Below, piece after piece: positions 2,248 to 40,284 of a stretch of DNA of 48,556 nucleotides (positions are counted from its first letter, which is position 1; every line of letters starts with the position of its first letter). The stretch covers positions 1-48,556 of IMG/VR virus record IMGVR_UViG_3300021057_000005. One strand, written 5' to 3'. The notes beneath the pieces were generated by a model. The model did not search any database. It saw nothing but the letters and a program-made list of their open reading frames with translations, and had not been told where the DNA came from. The position numbers were made by a program, and so were the translations under genes. This DNA is from a virus.

Positions 2248-2595
2248 ATGGTTGCTATAGTCCCTAGAATAATAAGGCTACGAGACGCACCAGGATATCT
2301 AGGGATGTGTAAGGACTACTTCAACCAAGAAGTAAGGCCATGTTTAACAGAGCTACAGATCGGCAGTAAAGGCGTAGGATTTGATCGACTTGAGTTAGAT
2401 TTATGGGTCACGTATACTAAAGCCTCTAGCGGGCGTGCCCCAATAAGGAGAATCTTATGGGAAACAAACGTAGCAACAAGCTCTCAGGTCTTACCTGCCG
2501 TAACGGGATTTGGTGGATCTGGAAGAGCATCGACGGAAGACGACTTCGCGAAAGCTGTAACACACGCGATGTCAAAGAGGCAGAAAGGTACATGA
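2248..2595 (+). CDS. excisionase/AlpA-like DNA-binding protein (putative)
   Basis: RBS AAAGAGGTGAAT then ATG. RLRDAPGYLGMCKDYFNQEVRPCL...GFDRLELDLWV looks like a small prophage HTH. It lies immediately 5' of int and its 3' end overlaps int by 139 nt. Confidence 0.4.
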   Translation: MVAIVPRIIRLRDAPGYLGMCKDYFNQEVRPCLTELQIGSKGVGFDRLELDLWVTYTKASSGRAPIRRILWETNVATSSQVLPAVTGFGGSGRASTEDDFAKAVTHAMSKRQKGT

Positions 2596-3584
2596 TCCAT
2601 CGTCTTGAAGAAATACGAAATGCAGGGGTCTATGGTATTAGGCCCCTTCGTACATTCAGGGATGCTGCGATCAAGTATATGAATGAAAATCGAACTCAGC
2701 GATCTATTGCTGATCGTGCCCAGCAGCTTAAATTTTTAGATCCTTATATAGGAACATTAAGCCTGGAAAAAGTTCATATCGGCAGCTTGCAAAAGTTTAT
2801 ATCAGATAGGAAATCACAAGGAGTTAAAGCCCGTACTATCAACTCTTCATTAGAGATAGTAAGACGAATCTTAAATCTTGCTGCCTCTGAGTGGATGGAT
2901 GAGAACGGGTTAACCTGGATTGCAAACGCTCCTAAGATCAAGCTTCTGTCCTTGGAAGATACTAGGAAACCTTGTCCATTGAGTTGGGAAGAACAAGATA
3001 AATTGTTTGCTTTATTACCTGGGTATTTACGTAAGATGGTATTGTTTAAAGTTAATACCGGGCTGCGTGACCAGGAGGTGTGTAAGTTGAAATGGGAATG
3101 GGAACATCATATTCCTGAATTGAATACGAGCGTGTTTATTATTCCTGCGGCTTACCATAAGAATAAAGAGGATAGATTAGTTGTTCTAAACCATACAGCA
3201 AGGCAAGTGATCGAATCGGTTAGAGGACAAAATAAAGAGTATGTTTTTGTATATAACAGTGTGCCTATCGGCAAGCTAAATAACAGGGCATGGAAGAAAG
3301 CACGAGCTATCGCAAATCTTCCCGTTCGTATACATGATTTAAAACATACTTTTGGAAGAAGACTCAGAGCGGCAGGTGTTAGCTTCGAAGATCGACAAGA
3401 TTTATTAGGACATAAGAGTGGAAGAATCACTACTCATTATAGTTCAGCAGAGATTGGTAATCTAATCGAAGCAGTTAATAAAATTTGTCGTGATAGGGGA
3501 ACAATGGGAACATTGACGCTATTGAGACAGACTGTCACAAATCTGTCACAACCAGTTAGGTTAATAGCAGCCAATGCGAGGTAA
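2457..3584 (+). CDS. int: tyrosine recombinase / phage integrase
   Basis: 375 aa with RBS AAGGAG. Catalytic signature TGLRDQEV (Arg), HDLKHTFGRRL (H-x-x-R), LLGHKSGRITTHY (His...Tyr). Adjacent to a tRNA-derived attP. Confidence 0.9.
   Translation: MGNKRSNKLSGLTCRNGIWWIWKSIDGRRLRESCNTRDVKEAERYMIHRLEEIRNAGVYGIRPLRTFRDAAIKYMNENRTQRSIADRAQQLKFLDPYIGTLSLEKVHIGSLQKFISDRKSQGVKARTINSSLEIVRRILNLAASEWMDENGLTWIANAPKIKLLSLEDTRKPCPLSWEEQDKLFALLPGYLRKMVLFKVNTGLRDQEVCKLKWEWEHHIPELNTSVFIIPAAYHKNKEDRLVVLNHTARQVIESVRGQNKEYVFVYNSVPIGKLNNRAWKKARAIANLPVRIHDLKHTFGRRLRAAGVSFEDRQDLLGHKSGRITTHYSSAEIGNLIEAVNKICRDRGTMGTLTLLRQTVTNLSQPVRLIAANAR
3533..3551 (+). repeat. two direct TGTCACAA repeats left of the attP core (candidate arm-type Int sites)
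   Basis: TGTCACAA at 3533-3540 and 3544-3551. Confidence 0.5.
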
Positions 3585-3731: not shown

Positions 3732-3759
3732 TGTCACAATTGTCACAAAACTGTCACAA
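3732..3759 (+). repeat. three direct TGTCACAA repeats right of the attP core (candidate arm-type Int sites)
   Basis: TGTCACAA at 3732-3739, 3741-3748 and 3752-3759. Confidence 0.5.
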
Positions 3760-3771
3760 GGAGATTATTAA

Positions 3772-3939
3772 ATGAAGGTCTATTATGGACATGATGATGG
3801 CGGATATTATTACCATCATGACGGAATGGGGCCTTATTGTAGTGGTTATGCAGATACAAATTCTTTTGAAGATTTTAAACAGCTGATACAAAAAACATTT
3901 CCAGATGAAGAATTAGAATTTATTGATTGGTCACAGTAG
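3772..3939 (+). CDS. 55-aa hypothetical protein
   Basis: RBS AAGGAG 8 nt upstream; MKVYYGHDDGGYYYHHDGMGPY...; below the track cutoff. Confidence 0.4.
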   Translation: MKVYYGHDDGGYYYHHDGMGPYCSGYADTNSFEDFKQLIQKTFPDEELEFIDWSQ

Positions 3940-4895: not shown

Positions 4896-5246
4896 ATGAG
4901 AGAAATTAAGTTTATGGTTTGGCGCAAATCAACACAAGAGATGTGTATCCCCTCTGATTTGGAACACTTGTTGGAACATTACAATGATAATGAAGAATAC
5001 ATTGCACGGCAATACACAGGGCTAAAAGATAAGAATGAGAAAGAAATTTATGAAGGGGATATAGCTAGCTTTCTTCATAATTACGGGGAAGGTTCTGAAT
5101 ACATGAATAAGTATATAGACGTAGTCCACTATGATACCGATACGGCAGGCTTTGTGTTTGGTAAAGAGGAGTTTACATTTTTAGAGATTTTAGAGGTAGA
5201 AGTAATAGGTAATATCTATGAGAATCCAGAGCTACGGGAGAAATAA
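4896..5246 (+). CDS. YopX-family protein
   Basis: IKFMVW...QYTGLKDKNEKEIYEGDI...VIGNIYENPEL is the YopX signature. Confidence 0.7.
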   Translation: MREIKFMVWRKSTQEMCIPSDLEHLLEHYNDNEEYIARQYTGLKDKNEKEIYEGDIASFLHNYGEGSEYMNKYIDVVHYDTDTAGFVFGKEEFTFLEILEVEVIGNIYENPELREK

Positions 5247-16601: not shown

Positions 16602-17771
16602 TTATTGATCTCCAAAAAATACTACGCCATTACCTTCGCAATCAATGGCGGCACCAGTCGCCTCATTTATTGTTAATACTCGATACGTAGATACACTGGC
16701 TCCATAAGTAGATTTGGTTGTAATAAATGTACGATCAGATGCACTGGACTGACACAATCCTGCCATGGCATAAGATGTGGAACTGAAATTCGTAGTAAAG
16801 GTGATTGTCGTGTCGCCAGTGGCGTTGTCAGTAAGAGAGGTGACGTTATAGCTTGCATTAATAGAAGTTGCTGTAGTAGTCACAAATCGAACCCATGCTT
16901 TGGCAGCACTTGGATGATAATGCTGTCTACCTGGAGTAACTACCGTAGTAGTGGATGTTGCTGTTTCTTGGTCGCTTTGTGCGGCTGCACCAGTTAACCC
17001 ATTAAAGGAAGTTCCTGTTGCAACGCCAATATCAGGAGTTGTTAATGTGGGAGAAGTTGCAAATACTAATGCACCTGATCCTGTTTCCCCGGTAACGGCA
17101 GATGCTAAGTTTGCAGAAGACGGTGTTGCTAAAAACGTCGCAACTCCTGTACCTAGACCAGATACGCCAGTGCTAATAGGCAGCCCTGTACAACTTGTTA
17201 AAGTGCCGGAAGTTGGCGTACCTAAAATAGGCGTAACTAATGTTGGAGTATTTGCAAATACTGCTGCTCCGGTGCCTGTCTCGTCAGTTAATGCAGCAAT
17301 TAAATTGGCACTAGATGGAGTAGCTAAAAACGTAGCCACATTTGTTCCTAGGCCTGATACACCAGTACTTATAGGAAGTCCTGTACAGCTAGTTAAAGTA
17401 CCTGATTGTGGAGTACCTAGAATTGGCGTAGTAAGAGTAGGAGAGGTGAGAGTTTTATTAGTTAAAGTTTCTGATCCTGCTAACGTTGCTAATGTTCCAG
17501 TAGTAGGAAATGTAACAGTTGTGGTGTTGGTTAAAGTCCCAGTAAACGCGAATGCTCCAGACAATGTAAAGGCACCTGCAATACTAATTGCATTGCCGTT
17601 ATATTGTAGCGCTGTAATATTAACTGCTGCAGAAGATAATTGGAGAGGGCAACTTGTCCCTTCTCCATCTGATACATTACGTAGAGTAGTATCGATACCA
17701 GAATTGCTATTAGAAACTTGTAAAAGATCTTTATAACTATCTGTGATGTATTGACCTGTTAATGTGGCCAT
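16602..17771 (-). CDS. second fiber/spike protein with an internal duplication
   Basis: [32 protein letters not shown]...ETG.GA.VFA..PTL..P.LGTP.SG occurs twice; Thr/Gly/Ala-rich. Confidence 0.5.
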
Positions 17772-21930: not shown

Positions 21931-22236
21931 TTATTCCTCGACTATTTCTGCTAAAATATCTAAATCTTTCATTAAACGGCTTTCTTTCCCTGATGCATTT
22001 CTTTCCAATTCTTTTCCGCCGTATCTTGCAAATACGACTTTGTCGCCTACTTTGATTTGGGATTCTCCATCTCCAAAATCGCCAAATGCTTGTGGCCCTA
22101 TTGCTAATACTGTTCCTTCTGCCTTTGCATTCTTTTCTCTTTCGGAAACATCTAAAATAATTCCTCCGGAGCTCTTTTCTTCAGTTCTATCTACTGAGAC
22201 AATGACCATGGTAGTAAGGGGTCTATATTTCCTCAT
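21931..22236 (-). CDS. groES: GroES-like co-chaperonin
   Basis: MRKYRPLTTMVIVSVDRTEEKSSGGIILDVSEREKNAKAEGTVLAIGPQ...IKVGDKVVFARYGGKEL...LMKDLDILAEIVE aligns by eye with GroES (RPLHDRVIV...SAGGIVL...G.VLAVG...VKVGD.V.F..Y.G...ESDILA). Confidence 0.7.
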   Translation of the reverse strand: MRKYRPLTTMVIVSVDRTEEKSSGGIILDVSEREKNAKAEGTVLAIGPQAFGDFGDGESQIKVGDKVVFARYGGKELERNASGKESRLMKDLDILAEIVEE

Positions 22237-27196: not shown

Positions 27197-27670
27197 TCAA
27201 GATTTTGAATTACTTAATAAGTATTGTTTTGCAGATTCTAATATGATTGGAGAATCTTTTAATAAGCCTATGGCCCTGTTGCAGTTATTGCATAATAACC
27301 CACGAATCTGGCCGGTTGTGTGGTCATGATCTACTGCCAATCTTTTTACTGCTCCGCCATTGCTTTGCGATGTTTCTTCATTCAGACAAATGGCACATTT
27401 ATTTTGTTGTTCTTCTGTTAATTTTAAATAATCTTGGTATGAAATATTAAATTTGGATTTTAAATGATAGTGTTTTGTTTTTTCTTTTAATTTTTCTCTA
27501 TTTTTACTCTGCCATAACTTACTTTTTTCAGTGGCGCATACAGAACAGGAGTAATTCGAAACAAGTCTTGGAGCAATATGGCCTCGGCGACATGGTTTGG
27601 TTGATAGATAGTATAAATCCCCTTGTGCTATAGCGGTTTTTCTATTTGTTTTCACTAACGTTCCCATCAA
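27197..27670 (-). CDS. recombination endonuclease VII-type HNH nuclease
   Basis: CAICLNEE...LAVDHDHTTGQIRGLLCNNCNRAIGLLKD is the Endonuclease_7 signature. Confidence 0.7.
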   Translation of the reverse strand: MMGTLVKTNRKTAIAQGDLYYLSTKPCRRGHIAPRLVSNYSCSVCATEKSKLWQSKNREKLKEKTKHYHLKSKFNISYQDYLKLTEEQQNKCAICLNEETSQSNGGAVKRLAVDHDHTTGQIRGLLCNNCNRAIGLLKDSPIILESAKQYLLSNSKS

Positions 27671-28277
27671 AGGAATGAAAGGGAGAAATAACCATCACCC
27701 ATTGACAATGATCCCCTTTGCTAGCATTCCTTCCTATCTTATGGCCAATCCTTATTCGAACACACTTAAGAACACCAAAAAATTTATAAATTTTAATGTA
27801 ATAATATTCAAAATAAGTTTTGCCGTTGCTTGACAACTCTGTATAAAATAATCCAGGAGCATTTCCTGTGCCATCTCCAATATCCGTAGGGATAGTGGAT
27901 AAATCTGCTTCTTTTGCATACCAAGTTGTGGATTTTTGCGAATATGGGAATTCAATTGTGATACCGAGAATCGCGTAACCTAGGTAATTCAATGGGTTCC
28001 TAAATGCCAACCAGCTGTAATGAACCCACAATGTGTCGCCAAATTTACTTAAATAAACCGAGGTATCTCTGCCTACATATAAATCTGCATTATCAAACCA
28101 GCGAAGTAGAACAGGCAGTTTTACACTCCTGGATGAATCACGACTAACTAACACACGATGAATAGGCAAGTATAGTAATAGCAGGACTGCGCCAATGGCT
28201 TGTAATGGAAAAATAACCACTAACAAGATGGCTAAATGTTTTAGAAATCTAAGTATAAATTTGATTATTTCTAACAT
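27642..28277 (-). CDS. membrane protein (hypothetical), first long CDS of the late arm
   Basis: 211 aa, N-terminal TM pair (LAILLVVIFPLQAIGAVLLLLYL), RBS AGGA. Confidence 0.4.
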   Translation of the reverse strand: MLEIIKFILRFLKHLAILLVVIFPLQAIGAVLLLLYLPIHRVLVSRDSSRSVKLPVLLRWFDNADLYVGRDTSVYLSKFGDTLWVHYSWLAFRNPLNYLGYAILGITIEFPYSQKSTTWYAKEADLSTIPTDIGDGTGNAPGLFYTELSSNGKTYFEYYYIKIYKFFGVLKCVRIRIGHKIGRNASKGDHCQWVMVISPFHSFDGNVSENK

Positions 28278-28875
28278 TTGGATTCCTGCGGAATTGGGAA
28301 TAGCTCCTACAGTTACCCACGTAGGCTGGTCACAACTTCAGGAGAATCCTACAGACCTGTTCGATTCTCTTTCTAGCCTGGGGAAGCGTTGTCTGTTTTA
28401 ACAGTGGGCTTTTCCACTAGCTTCCAATACAGGGCAGGTATGTGACACCATTTTCTTCGGGAGAAGAAATTCTTGCTGTCTCTCCAGCTGTCCTTACTTA
28501 GCTTTTGGTTTAGGGAAACTTCGTATCAGAAACCCTGCTAGTTTTTTATAACGACTCACTAGCACATCGACGTTCTATTTACCCAGCAGGGCTTTCACCT
28601 GCGCCTCTATCGTTAGCCTACGGTGCACGAACATGCACTCTGAATCGCGAAGGACTGCGTAGACACCGCATTACTGCACTATGATAGGCTCTTCAATCAG
28701 ACCGGCTCCTCCAGTAAACTGGTGCCTAATTTCGGACTGGTTACCGATGTTGTCCGTCTTTACGAGCTCTGGGTAAAACTAATTTGGGGCAGGACTTAAT
28801 CAAGATAGACGGAGCGATGCGCGCTATCTCTTGCCTAATACCAGCACCGTTGCGGTTACCCCAAAACCTTTATAA
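28278..28875. ncRNA. candidate structured RNA A (GC-enriched, ORF-free, about 600 nt); strand unresolved
   Basis: No credible ORF. G+C is 30/60, 28/60 and 35/60 in the lines starting at 28281, 28341 and 28581, against 24/60 and 18/60 in coding lines 40801 and 44101. Many helices (see findings). Confidence 0.35.
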
Positions 28876-28953
28876 CTATTCGTCTGAAGAAAGTCTGTGT
28901 AATACAATTACTACAACAACAAATGTTGCAACAGCACAAATTACCGTTATCAT
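28876..28953 (-). CDS. 25-aa hydrophobic peptide (hypothetical)
   Basis: MITVICAVATFVVVVIVLHRLSSDE; ATG 2 nt after the stop of the preceding mini-ORF. Confidence 0.25.
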   Translation of the reverse strand: MITVICAVATFVVVVIVLHRLSSDE

Positions 28954-28955
28954 AA

Positions 28956-29066
28956 CTATTTCAATCCGACTTTTTCTAAAACTTTATCTACAACGGGATC
29001 AACTAATTTACTGACTTGTTTTGCTACCACGACTGCGGCTGCGATTACTAAGACTGTTTCTAACAT
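28956..29066 (-). CDS. 36-aa hydrophobic/amphipathic peptide (hypothetical)
   Basis: MLETVLVIAAAVVVAKQVSKLVDPVVDKVLEKVGLK; RBS GAGGT 4 nt upstream of the ATG. Confidence 0.35.
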   Translation of the reverse strand: MLETVLVIAAAVVVAKQVSKLVDPVVDKVLEKVGLK

Positions 29067-29573
29067 AACTACCTCGTTGGTTTATTAATTTTTACGGAGA
29101 ACAATGCTTTTAATCTCCGCATTTTTATAATGGTGGTATGAGGAAGCGTTTTTCCATCAGAACTACGAGGCTCCGCGACATACACGTAAGTGATACTTAC
29201 CTATGTCTTTTATACGCTACCTTTCTATCTCGTGATTCAACCATAAACTGAAGGACTACTTTTATTACGACTGGTGTAGTCCGACCTGCACGACTGCGTA
29301 ATTCAGGAGCGGGGGAAGGGGATTGAGCCCTTCGCTTAAGATAATGGAGGCTATTTTCCCTGGAGAGCTTTGCATACAGCCCGATGACCTATCTCAGCTT
29401 TCGCTTTGACTCGGATGCTCACAACACATCGTCAAGTATCGTTGCCTTATATCCCAGATTACCAAAGTACCCGCATTAAATAATGTACCGATATCGCACC
29501 TCGGCACAGGAGTCGTTGATACTTGGCTGGAGTTATTTTTGTGCCAAGTTAAAGGGGGTGCAACGAAAACTGT
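29067..29573. ncRNA. candidate structured RNA B (GC-enriched, ORF-free, about 500 nt); strand unresolved
   Basis: G+C is 36/60 in the line starting at 29281. Helices include 29177-29207, 29253-29282 and 29309-29335, plus mutually exclusive pairings at 29500-29549. Confidence 0.35.
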
Positions 29574-29759
29574 TTAATTCTTCTTTCTGCGCTCTTTTTG
29601 ATATTTTACTTCGCATTTCTTGCATCTGGAGAAGACGCCAGTAAATTGGTAGTACCTGATAGCTTTGGTGTAAAACTCAGCGGGGCTCGTTTCAGGACAG
29701 GATCGGCACTTAAGGAAGTCTAATGTATTAACTTCGTCGCCTCTCATGTTGTGCCCCAT
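29574..29759 (-). CDS. 61-aa CxxC...CxxC zinc-ribbon protein (hypothetical regulator)
   Basis: C18-x2-C21 ... C46-x2-C49, basic C-terminus KYQKERRKKN; RBS GGGGAGAA; directly downstream of a consensus promoter. Confidence 0.5.
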   Translation of the reverse strand: MGHNMRGDEVNTLDFLKCRSCPETSPAEFYTKAIRYYQFTGVFSRCKKCEVKYQKERRKKN

Positions 29760-29781
29760 AAAAATTCTCCCCTATATTATA

Positions 29782-29810
29782 ATTATATACCACGTTTACT
29801 GATTTGTCAA
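29782..29810 (-). promoter_or_regulatory. consensus sigma70-type promoter with an AT-rich upstream tract
   Basis: On the minus strand: TTGACA (29810-29805), 17-nt spacer, TATAAT (29787-29782). Upstream lies gaaaaatgaaaatattttatataattaatacattttaaa (UP-like). Confidence 0.6.
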
Positions 29811-29829
29811 GTATTCTACGTTTAAAATG

Positions 29830-30331
29830 TATTAATTATATAAAATATTTTCATTTTTCATATCTACGTACACCAAAGTGGCTATTAGCTCATCCAAAAT
29901 GAGGTTGAATCGGGTCAGCACAGCTCCCAGCATTCTGCGGTCTTCTAATAGCAGGTACATATCTGTGTAAATGGGGTTATCTGAGGACGGCATCTAGAAA
30001 TTCTCCAGCATAGAGAATGGGGACATAAAAGTAATAGGGTCCCATATTCAAAAATACCCCCGGGCACCCCCATCGACTGACTCGTAAATACTTATTTCTA
30101 TTGGGCTTATGATATTTAATCATCTGTTCACACCAATACAATCAATTACTTAGTTATGTACTGTGACAGAATTGTGCCAATTGGATGAAAATTAAACGTT
30201 TGTGGTTAATTAATGTGCTAGTCTGTAGGGTAACTTGGGGTAGTTGGTGATCGTTTAACCACGAGCTTCCAATTGCGTTTAAATGGTATAAAAGTGCTTG
30301 GGTATATCTTTATTGCTATGGAATGGTTCAG
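29830..30331. ncRNA. candidate structured RNA C (GC-enriched, ORF-free, about 500 nt); strand unresolved
   Basis: G+C is 31/60 in the line starting at 29881. 8-bp helix 29881-88/29945-52 enclosing stacked hairpins; 12-bp helix 30198-30209/30255-30266. Confidence 0.3.
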
Positions 30332-30553
30332 CTAACTTTTACCACGCTGTATTTTCAATCGCTTGCGAACACTGTTGAATGCGGCCTTATTGCTAATTCC
30401 GCCCTTAACCAATCCAACCGTAGCGGAAACAATACGATTGTGTATCAGATTCTCACAATTAGTGCAGGGTTCTACGATCGTATGCGTATCCATATCCTCT
30501 AAACTCTCATGAACATGATTACATTCTTCACATTGGTATTCGTATATTGGCAT
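30332..30553 (-). CDS. FmdB-family zinc-ribbon protein
   Basis: MPIYEYQCEECNHVHE...CTNCEN matches the MPxYEYxCxxC...CxxC FmdB/CxxC_CxxC_SSSS pattern. Confidence 0.65.
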   Translation of the reverse strand: MPIYEYQCEECNHVHESLEDMDTHTIVEPCTNCENLIHNRIVSATVGLVKGGISNKAAFNSVRKRLKIQRGKS

Positions 30554-30655
30554 TGTTATGGCCTCATTGAGTCTACTACGGTAGGATTATATTAAAAATC
30601 ATTGCTTTGGGTGTGATAAATACTATTCTAATAGGATTATTGCTTCTATTTGCTG

Positions 30656-30668
30656 TGGTCTATGACCA
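30656..30668. promoter_or_regulatory. palindromic operator candidate TGGTC-TAT-GACCA (copy 1)
   Basis: Perfect 5-3-5 palindrome; an identical copy lies at 30743-30755. Confidence 0.5.
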
Positions 30669-30675
30669 TTCAATT

Positions 30676-30729
30676 ATGACTACAAACATGTATTCATTAT
30701 TTTACAAAATGATTACAAATATGTATTCA
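30676..30729 (+). repeat. two 21-nt direct repeats ATGA(C/T)TACAAA(C/T)ATGTATTCA
   Basis: 30676-30696 and 30709-30729 are identical at 19 of 21 positions and are bracketed by the two palindromes. Confidence 0.5.
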
Positions 30730-30742
30730 GAACTATAATGAA

Positions 30743-30755
30743 TGGTCTATGACCA
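30743..30755. promoter_or_regulatory. palindromic operator candidate TGGTC-TAT-GACCA (copy 2; extends to ATGGTCTATGACCAT 30742-30756)
   Basis: Perfect palindrome immediately downstream of a TATAAT (30734-30739). Confidence 0.5.
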
Positions 30756-31158
30756 TATGAATAACTATATAATTAATATAATATTTATTTAATAAAGTTA
30801 AACTAGAGCTTATTGGGTGATATATATTATCTATTCTATATATCCAACAATACGATCCAGTACAATTGCATGTGTCCTAGCTACGCTTTATTCCTGTTAC
30901 AGTCTTGAAGTCCATGACTAGTTGCGTAAAACATACTTGAAGGGATATTAATCGATTATCAGGTCAGGTGGCATGGTACCTGGTATTTGTTTATACCTGT
31001 CACTTTATGACAGTATCACCCCATGCTTTATTACCTATTTATCTTATCCTTGCTATCCTCTAGTGTCACATTCCTTAAGAATGCCGGTATCGTAGTAGTG
31101 TTCCTACGTCCAAATAGGATTAATATCCAAGATACAAAAACTGTATCCCTATATATTA

Positions 31159-31195
31159 TATATATCACATATTTAAAATATTTCCACTTTTCTAC
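31159..31195 (-). promoter_or_regulatory. 37-nt conserved promoter-like element, copy Y (minus orientation)
   Basis: The minus strand reads GTAGAAAAGTGGAAATATTTTAAATATGTGATATATA. The first 24 nt are identical to 33962-33985 and 33 of 37 nt match overall. Confidence 0.45.
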
Positions 31196-31427
31196 TTTTA
31201 AATATCTAATATCTTATTGATTAACATAAAAATAAATATTTTCACTAGTATTGCACTTTTTTACACACCCACTACCTATACAATACCTATAACACATAAA
31301 TTGCACTATGAGGCTGTATTGCGGTTTAAATGGCATCTATTTAGCCTAGCTTAACTAGAATATTCCATATCTGCTTAAACTGTAGCATTATATTTCATTA
31401 TGTATATCCACTTGCATATACACTGTC

Positions 31428-31455
31428 TTGACAAATATCTATCCTTGTGTATAAT
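31428..31455 (+). promoter_or_regulatory. consensus sigma70-type early promoter (TTGACA-N16-TATAAT)
   Basis: TTGACA 31428-31433, TATAAT 31450-31455 followed by TAA; 30 nt upstream of the first early ORF. Confidence 0.6.
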
Positions 31456-31485
31456 TAAATCAAGAACAATAACAGAGAGGAGAAT

Positions 31486-31590
31486 ATGAACGATATCGAT
31501 ATACATACCGTGTTACTAGGACTAACAGATGATGAGTTAATAAATTTAATAAACCAATGTGTTGATTTGATATGTGACCGATTACTTTAA
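31486..31590 (+). CDS. 34-aa hypothetical protein (first early ORF)
   Basis: RBS GAGAGGAGAAT then ATG; MNDIDIHTVLLGLTDDELINLINQCVDLICDRLL. Confidence 0.4.
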   Translation: MNDIDIHTVLLGLTDDELINLINQCVDLICDRLL

Positions 31591-31605
31591 CGAGGAGTAA
31601 ATGTC

Positions 31606-31859: not shown

Positions 31860-32210
31860 ATGATAAAACAAATTAAACAGTTCTTTAAAGGGTTATACAA
31901 AATGATTGCTAGTTGTTTTGTTACTAAAGAGGAGAGAGAAATAAAAGCAATAGCAAATATAAGTAAAGCGAACAACATGTATATGATGATGCATGAGGCA
32001 GATAGAAAAGAAAAAGAGGCAAGAGAGAACATTGAGCAAAATTCATGCAGTTTTGTGAAAGAGCTTACGCGCAAGGAGAGCAGTAATGAATTCCGTCGTG
32101 GTCATAACTGCAAGATGTATTCGCATTCGGCTAATCGCGGTAAATTCGGTTGGGACGAAATTGAAAATATTGCATCAGGTGAAATATTTAGACCAAAACG
32201 AGGAGGCTAA
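31860..32210 (+). CDS. hypothetical protein (N-terminus paralogous to 32213..32731)
   Basis: RBS GAGGAG; MIKQIKQFFKGLYKMIASCF... compared with MIEAIKQFGSWLWDGVKRFLNFFCCC... Confidence 0.55.
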   Translation: MIKQIKQFFKGLYKMIASCFVTKEEREIKAIANISKANNMYMMMHEADRKEKEARENIEQNSCSFVKELTRKESSNEFRRGHNCKMYSHSANRGKFGWDEIENIASGEIFRPKRGG

Positions 32211-32212
32211 TA

Positions 32213-32731
32213 ATGATAGAAGCAATTAAACAATTTGGTAGCTGGTTGTGGGACGGAGTAAAGCGATTCTTAAATTTCTTTTGCTGTTGTAACTTTATGA
32301 CAAAGCAAAAAGAAACGAAAGAATATGCTATAGACACTTTTGCTGAATTAAATAATCAGGAGATGATGCGAGAAGAAGCCCGTGTCAAAACAGACTCACT
32401 AGTGTCAAGACATTGTCTAAGGAACGACATTGATTTAGCGTTGCATGATGCAGCAGTTATGGCATATAAAAGCGGTATAGGAGGCTACAGCCATATTTTT
32501 AGGGCTCGGTATAATGAGTATTATAAGAGGAAAGAAATTGACCAATTTGAACGAGAAATTATAGGAGGTTTCCCATATGTTATTCAGAGAAAGTCTCGTC
32601 GTGAAGATATATTGGCAGCATTAGTGCTACAGCCAGTTCGTAAATCACCTAAACCAAAGAAGGAGGAAGTAGCATCACCAAGAGTAACGAAAGGGTCACT
32701 ATCTCAATTAAGAATGGGGAGGCAGTTATGA
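32213..32731 (+). CDS. hypothetical protein (paralog of the preceding ORF)
   Basis: RBS GAGGAGG; shares the N-terminal amphipathic/Cys segment followed by a KE-rich helix. Confidence 0.55.
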   Translation: MIEAIKQFGSWLWDGVKRFLNFFCCCNFMTKQKETKEYAIDTFAELNNQEMMREEARVKTDSLVSRHCLRNDIDLALHDAAVMAYKSGIGGYSHIFRARYNEYYKRKEIDQFEREIIGGFPYVIQRKSRREDILAALVLQPVRKSPKPKKEEVASPRVTKGSLSQLRMGRQL

Positions 32732-40103: not shown

Positions 40104-40270
40104 GACTCTTTAAAGAGTGCAAACCTACCAGGCAAGACAAGGTAATTGAAGAACAAGCAAATAAACTAGAATATTATTATATAGGTAATACATTTTATTT
40201 ATTTTCGCAAGGCATTGAATTTACTGAAGATAAAAAAAGTAAAGTAAAGTTCAATTTGACAAAAAAATAA
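40100..40270 (+). CDS. 56-aa hypothetical protein
   Basis: ATGA coupling to the helicase; its 3' end overlaps the promoter at 40256. Confidence 0.3.
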   Translation: MRLFKECKPTRQDKVIEEQANKLEYYYIGNTFYLFSQGIEFTEDKKSKVKFNLTKK

Positions 40271-40284
40271 TCACCTCCTATAAT
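40256..40284 (+). promoter_or_regulatory. consensus sigma70-type promoter (TTGACA-N17-TATAAT) embedded in a 10-bp inverted repeat
   Basis: TTGACA 40256-40261; TATAAT 40279-40284. CTATAATTAA-N7-TTAATTATAG spans 40278-40304. Confidence 0.55.

Follow-up and report, generated by a model that had tools for sequence, protein, structure and literature searches.

The window analyzed here, a 48,556-nucleotide (nt) stretch of viral DNA (IMG/VR record IMGVR_UViG_3300021057_000005), is nearly all of metagenome contig k141_832607 (ENA ERZ27252493; 48,570 bp). It belongs to a temperate, tailed phage with an integrase gene at 2457-3584 and with replication genes for a primase, a DnaB-type helicase, and a family-A DNA polymerase. 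Our subject is the leader that precedes the late genes (28278-29810, minus strand) and, in particular, a small structured element within it, the B unit. The late genes lie on the minus strand as well and include those for DUF7338, endonuclease VII (EndoVII), a holin, TerS, TerL, an SU10-type portal, Cpn10, and the capsid; minus-strand genes are contiguous from 28277 to 5711 (approximately 22.5 kb).

An earlier note on this DNA had described, ahead of this operon, a textbook TTGACA-N17-TATAAT promoter with an AT-rich tract, a CxxC-x24-CxxC open reading frame (ORF) of 61 amino acids (aa), two mini-ORFs of 36 and 25 aa, and two blocks of GC-rich leader RNA. We find all of these in place (Table 1). 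There are four perfect TTGACA-N16-18-TATAAT sites in the window, compared with 0.06 expected by chance, and the one at 29810-29782 is the sole perfect promoter on the late-gene strand; the tract upstream of it has a G+C content of 0.27. Block B (29573-29067) and block A (28875-28278) have G+C contents of 44% and 48%, respectively, against 38% for the genome, and neither contains an ORF.

The same note took both blocks to be structured, which holds for parts of them and not for the wholes. The whole-block fold z-scores are -2.1 for block A and -0.97 for block B, and sliding 150-nt windows mostly give z between -2 and +1, with nothing unusual on either strand. Thermodynamic stability is uninformative as evidence in this case, since even the well-supported B unit has a z of -0.5. 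It is the comparison of related sequences that supports structure in three sub-domains, strongly in the B unit, in the C domain, and modestly in the A domain; together they account for approximately 370 of the approximately 1100 nt.

Table 1. Features of the leader and the first late gene, listed from upstream to downstream (L003 and L015 are related phage loci; R3 is the family covariance model described in the text)
Feature	Coordinates	Strand	Basis and remarks
Consensus sigma-70 promoter, TTGACA-N17-TATAAT	29782..29810	-	12/12 match; AT-rich tract upstream
Putative orphan Zn-ribbon ORF, 61 aa, CxxC-x24-CxxC	29574..29759	-	GGGGAG Shine-Dalgarno
Hairpin GUGCCGA/UCGGUAC then AUUAUUUAAU, weak terminator-like candidate	29475..29507	-	By eye only
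B unit	29345..29447	-	Family model R3 and covariation; core 99% identical to L003
Candidate second unit, UUUAU-GGU...ACC-A-CCA-UUAU	29131..29242	-	Sequence inspection; punctuation as in tRNA-like arrays
Hairpin GCGGAGA...UCUCCGU flanked by A-rich and U-rich runs	29094..29120	-	Sequence and fold
Small membrane protein ORF, 36 aa	28956..29066	-	GAGG Shine-Dalgarno; called in the public assembly
Hydrophobic mini-ORF, 25 aa	28876..28953	-	Begins 2 nt after the 36-aa ORF
C domain, hairpin closed by UUUGGGG/CCCCAAA	28783..28866	-	Common to the window and L015 only
A domain, ~183-nt multi-helix candidate RNA	28296..28478	-	Common to the window and L003 only
DUF7338 membrane protein, first late-operon gene	27642..28277	-	Followed by EndoVII, holin, TerS, TerL, portal

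The B unit and its RNA family

A covariance model built from two B pieces, those of the window and of its mosaic relative L003 (L003/L004; JGI Ga0196963_10000133), picked up a third copy, a weak one, in the early region of L007, and a compact fourth copy was recognized on reading L015. All four initial copies have GATACTT...AGGGAAAATAG in common, the 11-mer occurring exactly once per lineage. When IMG/VR was scanned for both words with a variable gap between them, 78 loci were returned, and 19 of these (17 distinct sequences) carry the extended consensus ttATG-GSC-GAC-GATACTT...AGGGAAAATAG-GSC-NCCA-rtttATGG. We define the B-unit family as the GAUACUU...AGGGAAAAUAG loop-E-like hairpin; in all, it has approximately 25 copies on more than 20 unrelated phage contigs.

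The family architecture consists of a closing stem (P1) of 3-6 bp, a symmetric 7x7 loop, a second stem (P2) made up of CUU/AGG and an extension, and an apex of 4 to 78 nt, which in L015 is a bare GCAA tetraloop. The loop columns, 5'-(G/A)A(C/A)GAUA and 5'-GAAAAUA, are invariant in the 21 aligned copies. In the window the elements are P1 AGGC/GCCU, loop AACGAUA/GAAAAUA (the first strand is GACGAUA in the family), P2 CUUG/CAGG, and a branched apex, followed by U-CCA and UUAUC; P1, loop, and P2 are also what the minimum-energy fold of the window copy alone contains.

The stems vary in sequence and keep their pairing. In the 21 copies, 98.8% of P1 cells are paired; the P1 pair 10-48 is CG in 12, GC in 7, and AU in 2, and in the P2 extension the pair that comes first is AU in 8, GC in 4, CG in 3, and UA in 3. 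The covariation score is 0.395, compared with 0.154 in shuffled alignments (none of 500 reaches 0.395) and at most 0.14 when the partners are slid. Because P2 has an invariant U.G pair and P1 has G.U pairs, the fold can be assigned to the strand of the neighboring genes. The family covariance model, R3, scores members at 37-82 bits and the other word-matching loci, which are chance matches, at no more than 23 bits. In the window it finds one copy (74.2 bits, E-value 8e-23) and nothing else above 10 bits. It also recovers copies on which it was not trained and which lack the exact words, in L054 (46.5 bits) and in L080 (37.4 and 34.8 bits); these stand in tandem arrays.

We also considered a short peptide gene (MADDT...) as an explanation of the motif and rejected it: the apex lengths are not multiples of three, stops are randomly placed, and GAT and ACT are constant at their third codon positions. 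Among known RNAs, the whole window matches no Rfam 15 family at gathering scores, and 27500-30500 gives just four chance-level matches at E-values up to 10. ROOL, GOLLD, OLE, and HEARO are among the families without a match at either setting, which excludes the nanocage-type RNA (ROOL/GOLLD) that had been suggested for this leader. ROOL, GOLLD, and OLE are similar to the RNAs described here in being phage- or prophage-associated non-coding RNAs, often near tRNAs, but each is a single fold of 500-800 nt, whereas the conserved units here are modular and 85-185 nt long. Searches of L003, L080, L053, and 11 viral loci with Rfam 15 returned tRNAs only, and no B copy gained a match when thresholds were relaxed. 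ARAGORN and the Rfam tRNA model found no tRNA or tmRNA in the window, and the tRNA-like traits of the B unit are limited to its NCCA end and short stem. A literature search for the motif words gave chance matches only. Judged by covariation and model scores, the B unit is a member of a widespread family of predicted phage RNAs that is absent from Rfam 15. In the DNAVirus_X catalogue there are 8495 covarying motifs, each 29-151 nt long, from intergenic regions of IMG/VR phages, some of them tRNA-like (PMC10690425). The same collection is the source of 17 B copies, and the B family may be among these candidates, which are unnamed and have no assigned function.

The 7x7 loop recalls loop E of bacterial 5S rRNA, whose strands are GAUGGUA/GAGAGUA (PDB 1DFU, tabulated in PMC1920249) and which is bound by L25 (PMC4408793). 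The B unit and the 5S helix V - loop E - helix IV segment have the same layout, with a closing and a distal helix on either side of a symmetric 7x7 loop, each strand of which reads GA-N3-UA. The central three positions differ, however, from those of the B motif (GACGAUA/GAAAAUA), and further 5S features, the three-way junction among them, are missing from the B unit; 27500-30500 gives no match to the Rfam 5S model even at E-values up to 10. The resemblance to loop E, seen by inspection only, suggests that the B loop is a rigid non-canonical helix serving as a protein platform.

Each of the 17 viral copies is found in a span of 178-1876 nt that contains no ORF; most have the orientation of the ORFs beside them, and the motif often begins 12-20 nt past a stop codon. 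The neighboring genes include a replication initiator, an HNH nuclease, an ATPase, a portal (twice), and TerL, and no protein family was found in more than 5 of 21 loci. With such varied neighbors and no shared protein family, the B motif does not behave as a leader dedicated to a single gene. It has adjacent tRNAs in L049, L053, and L045. In L053 it shares an island, shortly upstream of TerL, with three tRNAs, and there the trailer of a tRNA-Met runs into AUUAUGG; this opens a stem-closed unit that ends in ACC-A-CCA-AUUUAAC. Other units in the arrays likewise have terminal stems of 6-9 bp followed by N-CCA and an AU-rich spacer. Among the B-type copies themselves, the window copy (GCC-U-CCA-UUAUC) is one of those with an NCCA end. 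RNase E cleaves directly after an encoded CCA, and CCA with an AU-rich spacer is used in tRNA operons (PMC2190699); RNase P uses a 3' RCCA in small hairpin substrates (PMC12710915). Since the punctuation of the arrays matches this usage, we infer a tRNA-like processing of the RNAs.

The same punctuation marks the candidate second unit of the window, which has a 10-bp internal helix and a long hairpin; we found no homologue of it and no comparative support. Two other elements were seen near B motifs elsewhere. One is a second recurrent stem-closed unit, GGCAATCG(C/T)(G/C)G...GGCCGATTGCC(A), approximately 120-150 nt long, which lies next to the motif in several arrays (L041, approximately 3735-3880; L080, approximately 5025-5170 and without an Rfam match; L050; L094; L045) and is absent from the window. 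The other, at 1492-1381 on the minus strand of L007, is a tRNA-like element, approximately 112 nt long, whose stem of acceptor type has 8 bp (ATCGACAG/CTGTCGAT) and which includes a T arm (ATGGGTTCAAATCCCAT). It is not called by ARAGORN and stands directly upstream of a hairpin and the B motif of L007.

The leader in related phages

The early genes of L003 are nearly the same as those of the window phage (window 31513-33273 and L003 2771-4533 are 99% identical), while the late genes are 65-77% identical (e.g., window 16606-17434) and the TerL types differ. The boundary between the two parts of this mosaic is sharp and falls in the divergent intergenic region and the leader. L003 has a perfect promoter, small ORFs including one for an 89-aa Zn-ribbon protein, and then a strong intrinsic terminator, at a position analogous to that of the window hairpin 29475-29507. 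Approximately 700 nt of non-coding sequence with B and A follow, and after these come a second terminator-like site and the late genes. Only two pieces of the window leader recur in this non-coding stretch: the B piece (window 29455-29351) is 93% identical, with a core at 99%, and the A piece (window 28478-28299) is 88% identical. Exact and degenerate DNA words of the two pieces were found nowhere in the viral collection or in genome scans, and a metagenome scan with the same words returned only the L003 contig and one chance match inside a coding gene (L018).

L015 has a Zn-ribbon ORF, a 46-aa membrane ORF, and a 600-nt gap with the C domain and the compact B motif, followed by DUF7338. The C domain is thus upstream of DUF7338 in L015 also; the two copies share GGGTAACCGCAACG and TCCTGCCC, and the closing stem has changed on both sides, from UUUGGGG/CCCCAAA in the window to UUGAGGG/CCCUCAA in L015. 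For the A domain there is one compensatory pair relative to L003, and 9 of the 24 differences fall at paired positions, where 60% of positions are paired in the single-sequence fold; some pairs at helix ends are broken in L003. The structural support for the A domain is modest, and both C and A rest on two sequences each.

It might be asked whether B and A are halves of one large RNA. We rejected this: they are 92 nt apart in L003 and approximately 870 nt apart in the window, real small genes lie between them, and other loci that carry B have no copy of A. A possible pairing between the two tails (AAUAG/CUAUU) shows no covariation.

What the relatives have at this junction differs from one to another. 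A tRNA-Met stands directly before DUF7338 in L009, and a tRNA-Met and a tRNA-Tyr stand directly after it in L015, so that tRNAs and the window's RNA domains hold equivalent positions. L007, L009, and L019 have gene-free junction gaps of 0.8-1.2 kb without these domains; L019, the closest TerL relative, has none of B, C, and A. The set of carriers is different for each of the three domains, i.e., their distribution is mosaic. The module had been expected to be syntenic in related phages, and this proves true of the order of its parts, which is loosely kept in L003 and L015, but not of their content, which appears interchangeable. Blastn of the region and of each conserved piece against the isolated phages of INPHARED gave no match, and the closest TerL in that record collection is at most 45% identical.

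A proposed slot for RNA cargo

How should this leader be read? The interpretation we favor, at roughly even chances, is that the region is the head of a leftward late transcription unit and offers a slot for RNA and micro-gene cargo, rather than being one integrated leader. The promoter at 29810 would transcribe the Zn-ribbon ORF, the B unit, the possible NCCA-ended unit, the C and A domains, the two micro-genes, and the late genes, and any read-through from upstream would transcribe the leader RNAs as well. Host tRNA-processing nucleases, RNase P and RNase E, would then excise the RNAs from the long transcript, and the released RNAs would work in trans, where they would probably serve as a decoy or as a platform to which proteins bind. 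The timing of late expression would be set not by these RNAs but by read-through or antitermination at leader terminators, as at lambda pR'-tR'. The earlier note had raised stable RNA cargo co-transcribed with the late genes as one of two options. The mosaic domains, the tRNAs in the slot, and the NCCA ends lean toward this option.

The layout is a variant of a known theme, in which late-operon leaders and tRNA islands serve as cargo slots. Among the lambdoid phages, which have pR'-tR'/Q late leaders, the Stx phages are an example: the stretch from pR' to the lysis genes houses stx together with tRNA genes. The leader described here is similar in that a strong sigma-70 promoter of constitutive type heads the late operon, in that, clearly so in L003, a short transcribed segment and one or more terminators precede the late genes, and in that the leader acts as a slot, filled with tRNAs in L009 and L015 and with RNAs and micro-ORFs in the window. 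It differs in that no Q-family antiterminator is recognized and the window itself has no canonical terminator, only a weak candidate hairpin identified by eye (29507-29475), and in that the cargo of the window is structured RNA other than tRNA. In addition, the window phage is non-lambdoid, with a T7-type DNA polymerase, a primase-helicase, and an SU10-type portal. The tRNA region of T4 includes extra small stable RNAs, species 1 and 2. B-motif arrays and T4-type tRNA clusters have in common stem-closed units beside tRNAs, encoded CCA-type 3' ends, and AU-rich spacers, and these ends and spacers imply that the units could be released by tRNA-processing nucleases. On the other hand, there is no sequence or Rfam relationship to the T4 RNAs, the window has no tRNA, and a 7x7 loop of this kind is not known from them.

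It is tempting to go further, in what we regard as a tentative proposal, and to see in the B unit a new class of phage small RNA. Host enzymes that process tRNAs would free it from the leaders of operons and from tRNA-like arrays, and its invariant loop-E-like platform would capture a specific protein of the host or of a phage, such as a defence nuclease or one that binds 5S rRNA. The late leader would be a landing pad for mobile RNA cargo, with B, C, and A interchangeable with tRNAs; this part of the proposal is equally tentative.

Several points weigh against the favored interpretation. The family members were picked by eye before modeling, which could inflate the P1 statistics; this selection is not responsible for the P2 covariation or for the untrained R3 matches, because both are independent of that choice. 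An NCCA end is present in only approximately 12 of 21 family copies, and P1, at 3-6 bp, is short for an RNase P substrate. An early module is 99% identical between the window and L003, and part of the identity of their B and A pieces is therefore due to recent exchange rather than constraint. The terminator scan found no canonical terminator in the window leader (the hairpin at 29475-29507 was missed because its loop is 9 nt), and no Q-like antiterminator was recognized, including among the larger plus-strand ORFs scanned. Finally, the remaining two-thirds or so of the non-coding nucleotides have neither a homologue nor a thermodynamic signal in the searches made.

The other option raised in the earlier note was a new late-gene control device, in which the leader RNA, in the manner of HK022 put and alone or with the Zn-ribbon protein, would modify RNA polymerase for read-through into the late operon. 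There are reasons to take this seriously. The phage is temperate, and no phage RNA polymerase or sigma factor was recognized among the window ORFs scanned, so a sigma-70 promoter before the late genes calls for a block downstream of it. In L003 a strong terminator follows the Zn-ribbon ORF and a terminator-like site stands before the first late gene, and in the window, L003, and L015 alike a Zn-ribbon ORF is found shortly ahead of the late cluster. Position makes this reading unlikely. The strong terminator of L003 precedes the RNAs and so lies beyond the reach of a put-like RNA, and the B family occurs at many sites that are not promoter-proximal, also in tandem, a distribution at odds with an antiterminator that acts in cis close to its promoter. 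Nor are the A and C domains common to relatives with the same operon layout. The three Zn-ribbon ORFs are not detectably homologous to one another, and that of the window is an orphan without an Ogr_Delta domain. We therefore find the control device unsupported.

That the leader is mostly non-functional spacer, left by recombination scars or decay at a module junction and sprinkled with a few mobile RNA or hairpin elements, also seems improbable to us. The weak whole-block z-scores, the unmatched two-thirds of the non-coding sequence, and the strong mosaicism relative to L003 (early 99%, late 65-77% identity) speak for it. Yet the G+C content is 6-10 points above that of the genome throughout both blocks, and there is no trace of a decayed gene, as tblastx of the leader against all related loci returned only the RNA pieces and the mini-ORF. 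Structure-preserving change is seen in three sub-domains, and gene-free stretches of 0.6-1.2 kb occupy the same junction in several lineages. For the two-thirds that show no comparative signal, the spacer view keeps some probability.

A narrower alternative concerns the A domain, whose 3' end is 20 nt ahead of the DUF7338 start codon. Here a small hairpin (AUUCC/GGAAU), seen in the sequence and in the fold, overlaps the AGGA Shine-Dalgarno sequence, and the domain could be a cis-regulatory 5' untranslated region of that gene in which the hairpin sequesters the site. In L003, however, the gene that follows the domain, after 230 nt, is another one (a 109-aa ORF), and DUF7338 is 2 kb away; other DUF7338 genes have no A domain. 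Both facts leave little probability for this view. Hardly credible at all is the view that the conserved boxes are DNA sites (pac, an origin, a homing-endonuclease target, or the ends of a miniature mobile element): TTTATGG-like words do stand beside many copies, HNH/EndoVII genes and a Zn-ribbon ORF are nearby in the window and L031, and the distribution among phages is patchy, but on the opposite strand the invariant U.G pair and the further G.U pairs would turn into C-A mismatches, the copies are oriented like the genes around them, these same flanks also set off tRNAs and other stem-closed units within arrays, and the apex varies in length between fixed stems, as is typical of RNA hairpins.

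Phage annotation is almost wholly protein-based, and "empty" leaders of a kilobase are overlooked; the one described here resolves into discrete candidate RNA genes. For the B RNAs, the invariant 7x7 loop and the tRNA-like ends are concrete handles for experiment. If they do act in trans late in infection, they would add a new class to the few phage non-coding effectors, and the late-operon head would be a hot spot for RNA cargo in addition to protein cargo genes. If they do not, the attractive idea of a new late-control device would still have been corrected.

Small ORFs and neighboring regions

The 61-aa Zn-ribbon ORF is absent from the gene calls of the public assembly. It had been compared to the late activators P2 Ogr and P4 Delta, a likeness that our searches do not bear out: no Pfam family matches at E-values up to 0.01, and Ogr_Delta (PF04606) is thus not found. 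Against PHROG there is a weak similarity to the N-terminal Zn finger of HNH/EndoVII nucleases (E-value approximately 3e-3), and among 1.84 billion representative proteins there are five weak matches, all of them Cys-rich repeat proteins. In L031 (5550-6038, in the orientation of the motif) a B motif is followed immediately by an HNH endonuclease with an N-terminal CxxC...F...CKxC pattern, which the 61-aa ORF shares; the pairwise similarity is not significant.

Since it is called in the public assembly and since L007/L008 carry a homologue of 31 aa shortly downstream of DUF7338, the 36-aa ORF probably encodes a real small membrane protein. For the 25-aa mini-ORF, tblastx against the related loci found no homologue. 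The hairpin at 29094-29120, upstream of these ORFs, has its U-run on the plus-strand side and resembles an intrinsic terminator for antisense transcription; there is no plus-strand gene there.

Upstream of the late promoter are ORFs of 73 and 53 aa, neither of which matches an antiterminator family. The 73-aa protein (30332-30553, minus strand) is of the FmdB type (Zn_ribbon_8; Pfam E-value 5e-10) and could be the actual late regulator. A small FmdB-like ORF likewise precedes the late cluster of L015 (4300-4503).

Beyond it, at 30554-31605, is a 1-kb AT-rich (30% G+C) divergent intergenic region in which some patches match L003 at 81-96% identity and in which the perfect early promoter of the plus strand lies (31428-31455); it probably holds an early control region or origin. 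Two early ORFs follow. Looked up by its exact sequence, the 116-aa protein (31860-32210) was found on no contig but that of the window itself, and a homologue search with the 172-aa ORF (32213-32731) returned only the window's own protein. The two other perfect sigma-70 promoters are also on the plus strand, one just upstream of the integrase region (2199-2227) and one ahead of a 146-aa ORF and the DNA polymerase genes (40256-40284). Within the late operon, the Cpn10 (GroES-like) gene (21931-22236, minus strand) lies beside the portal and capsid genes and is conserved in several relatives.

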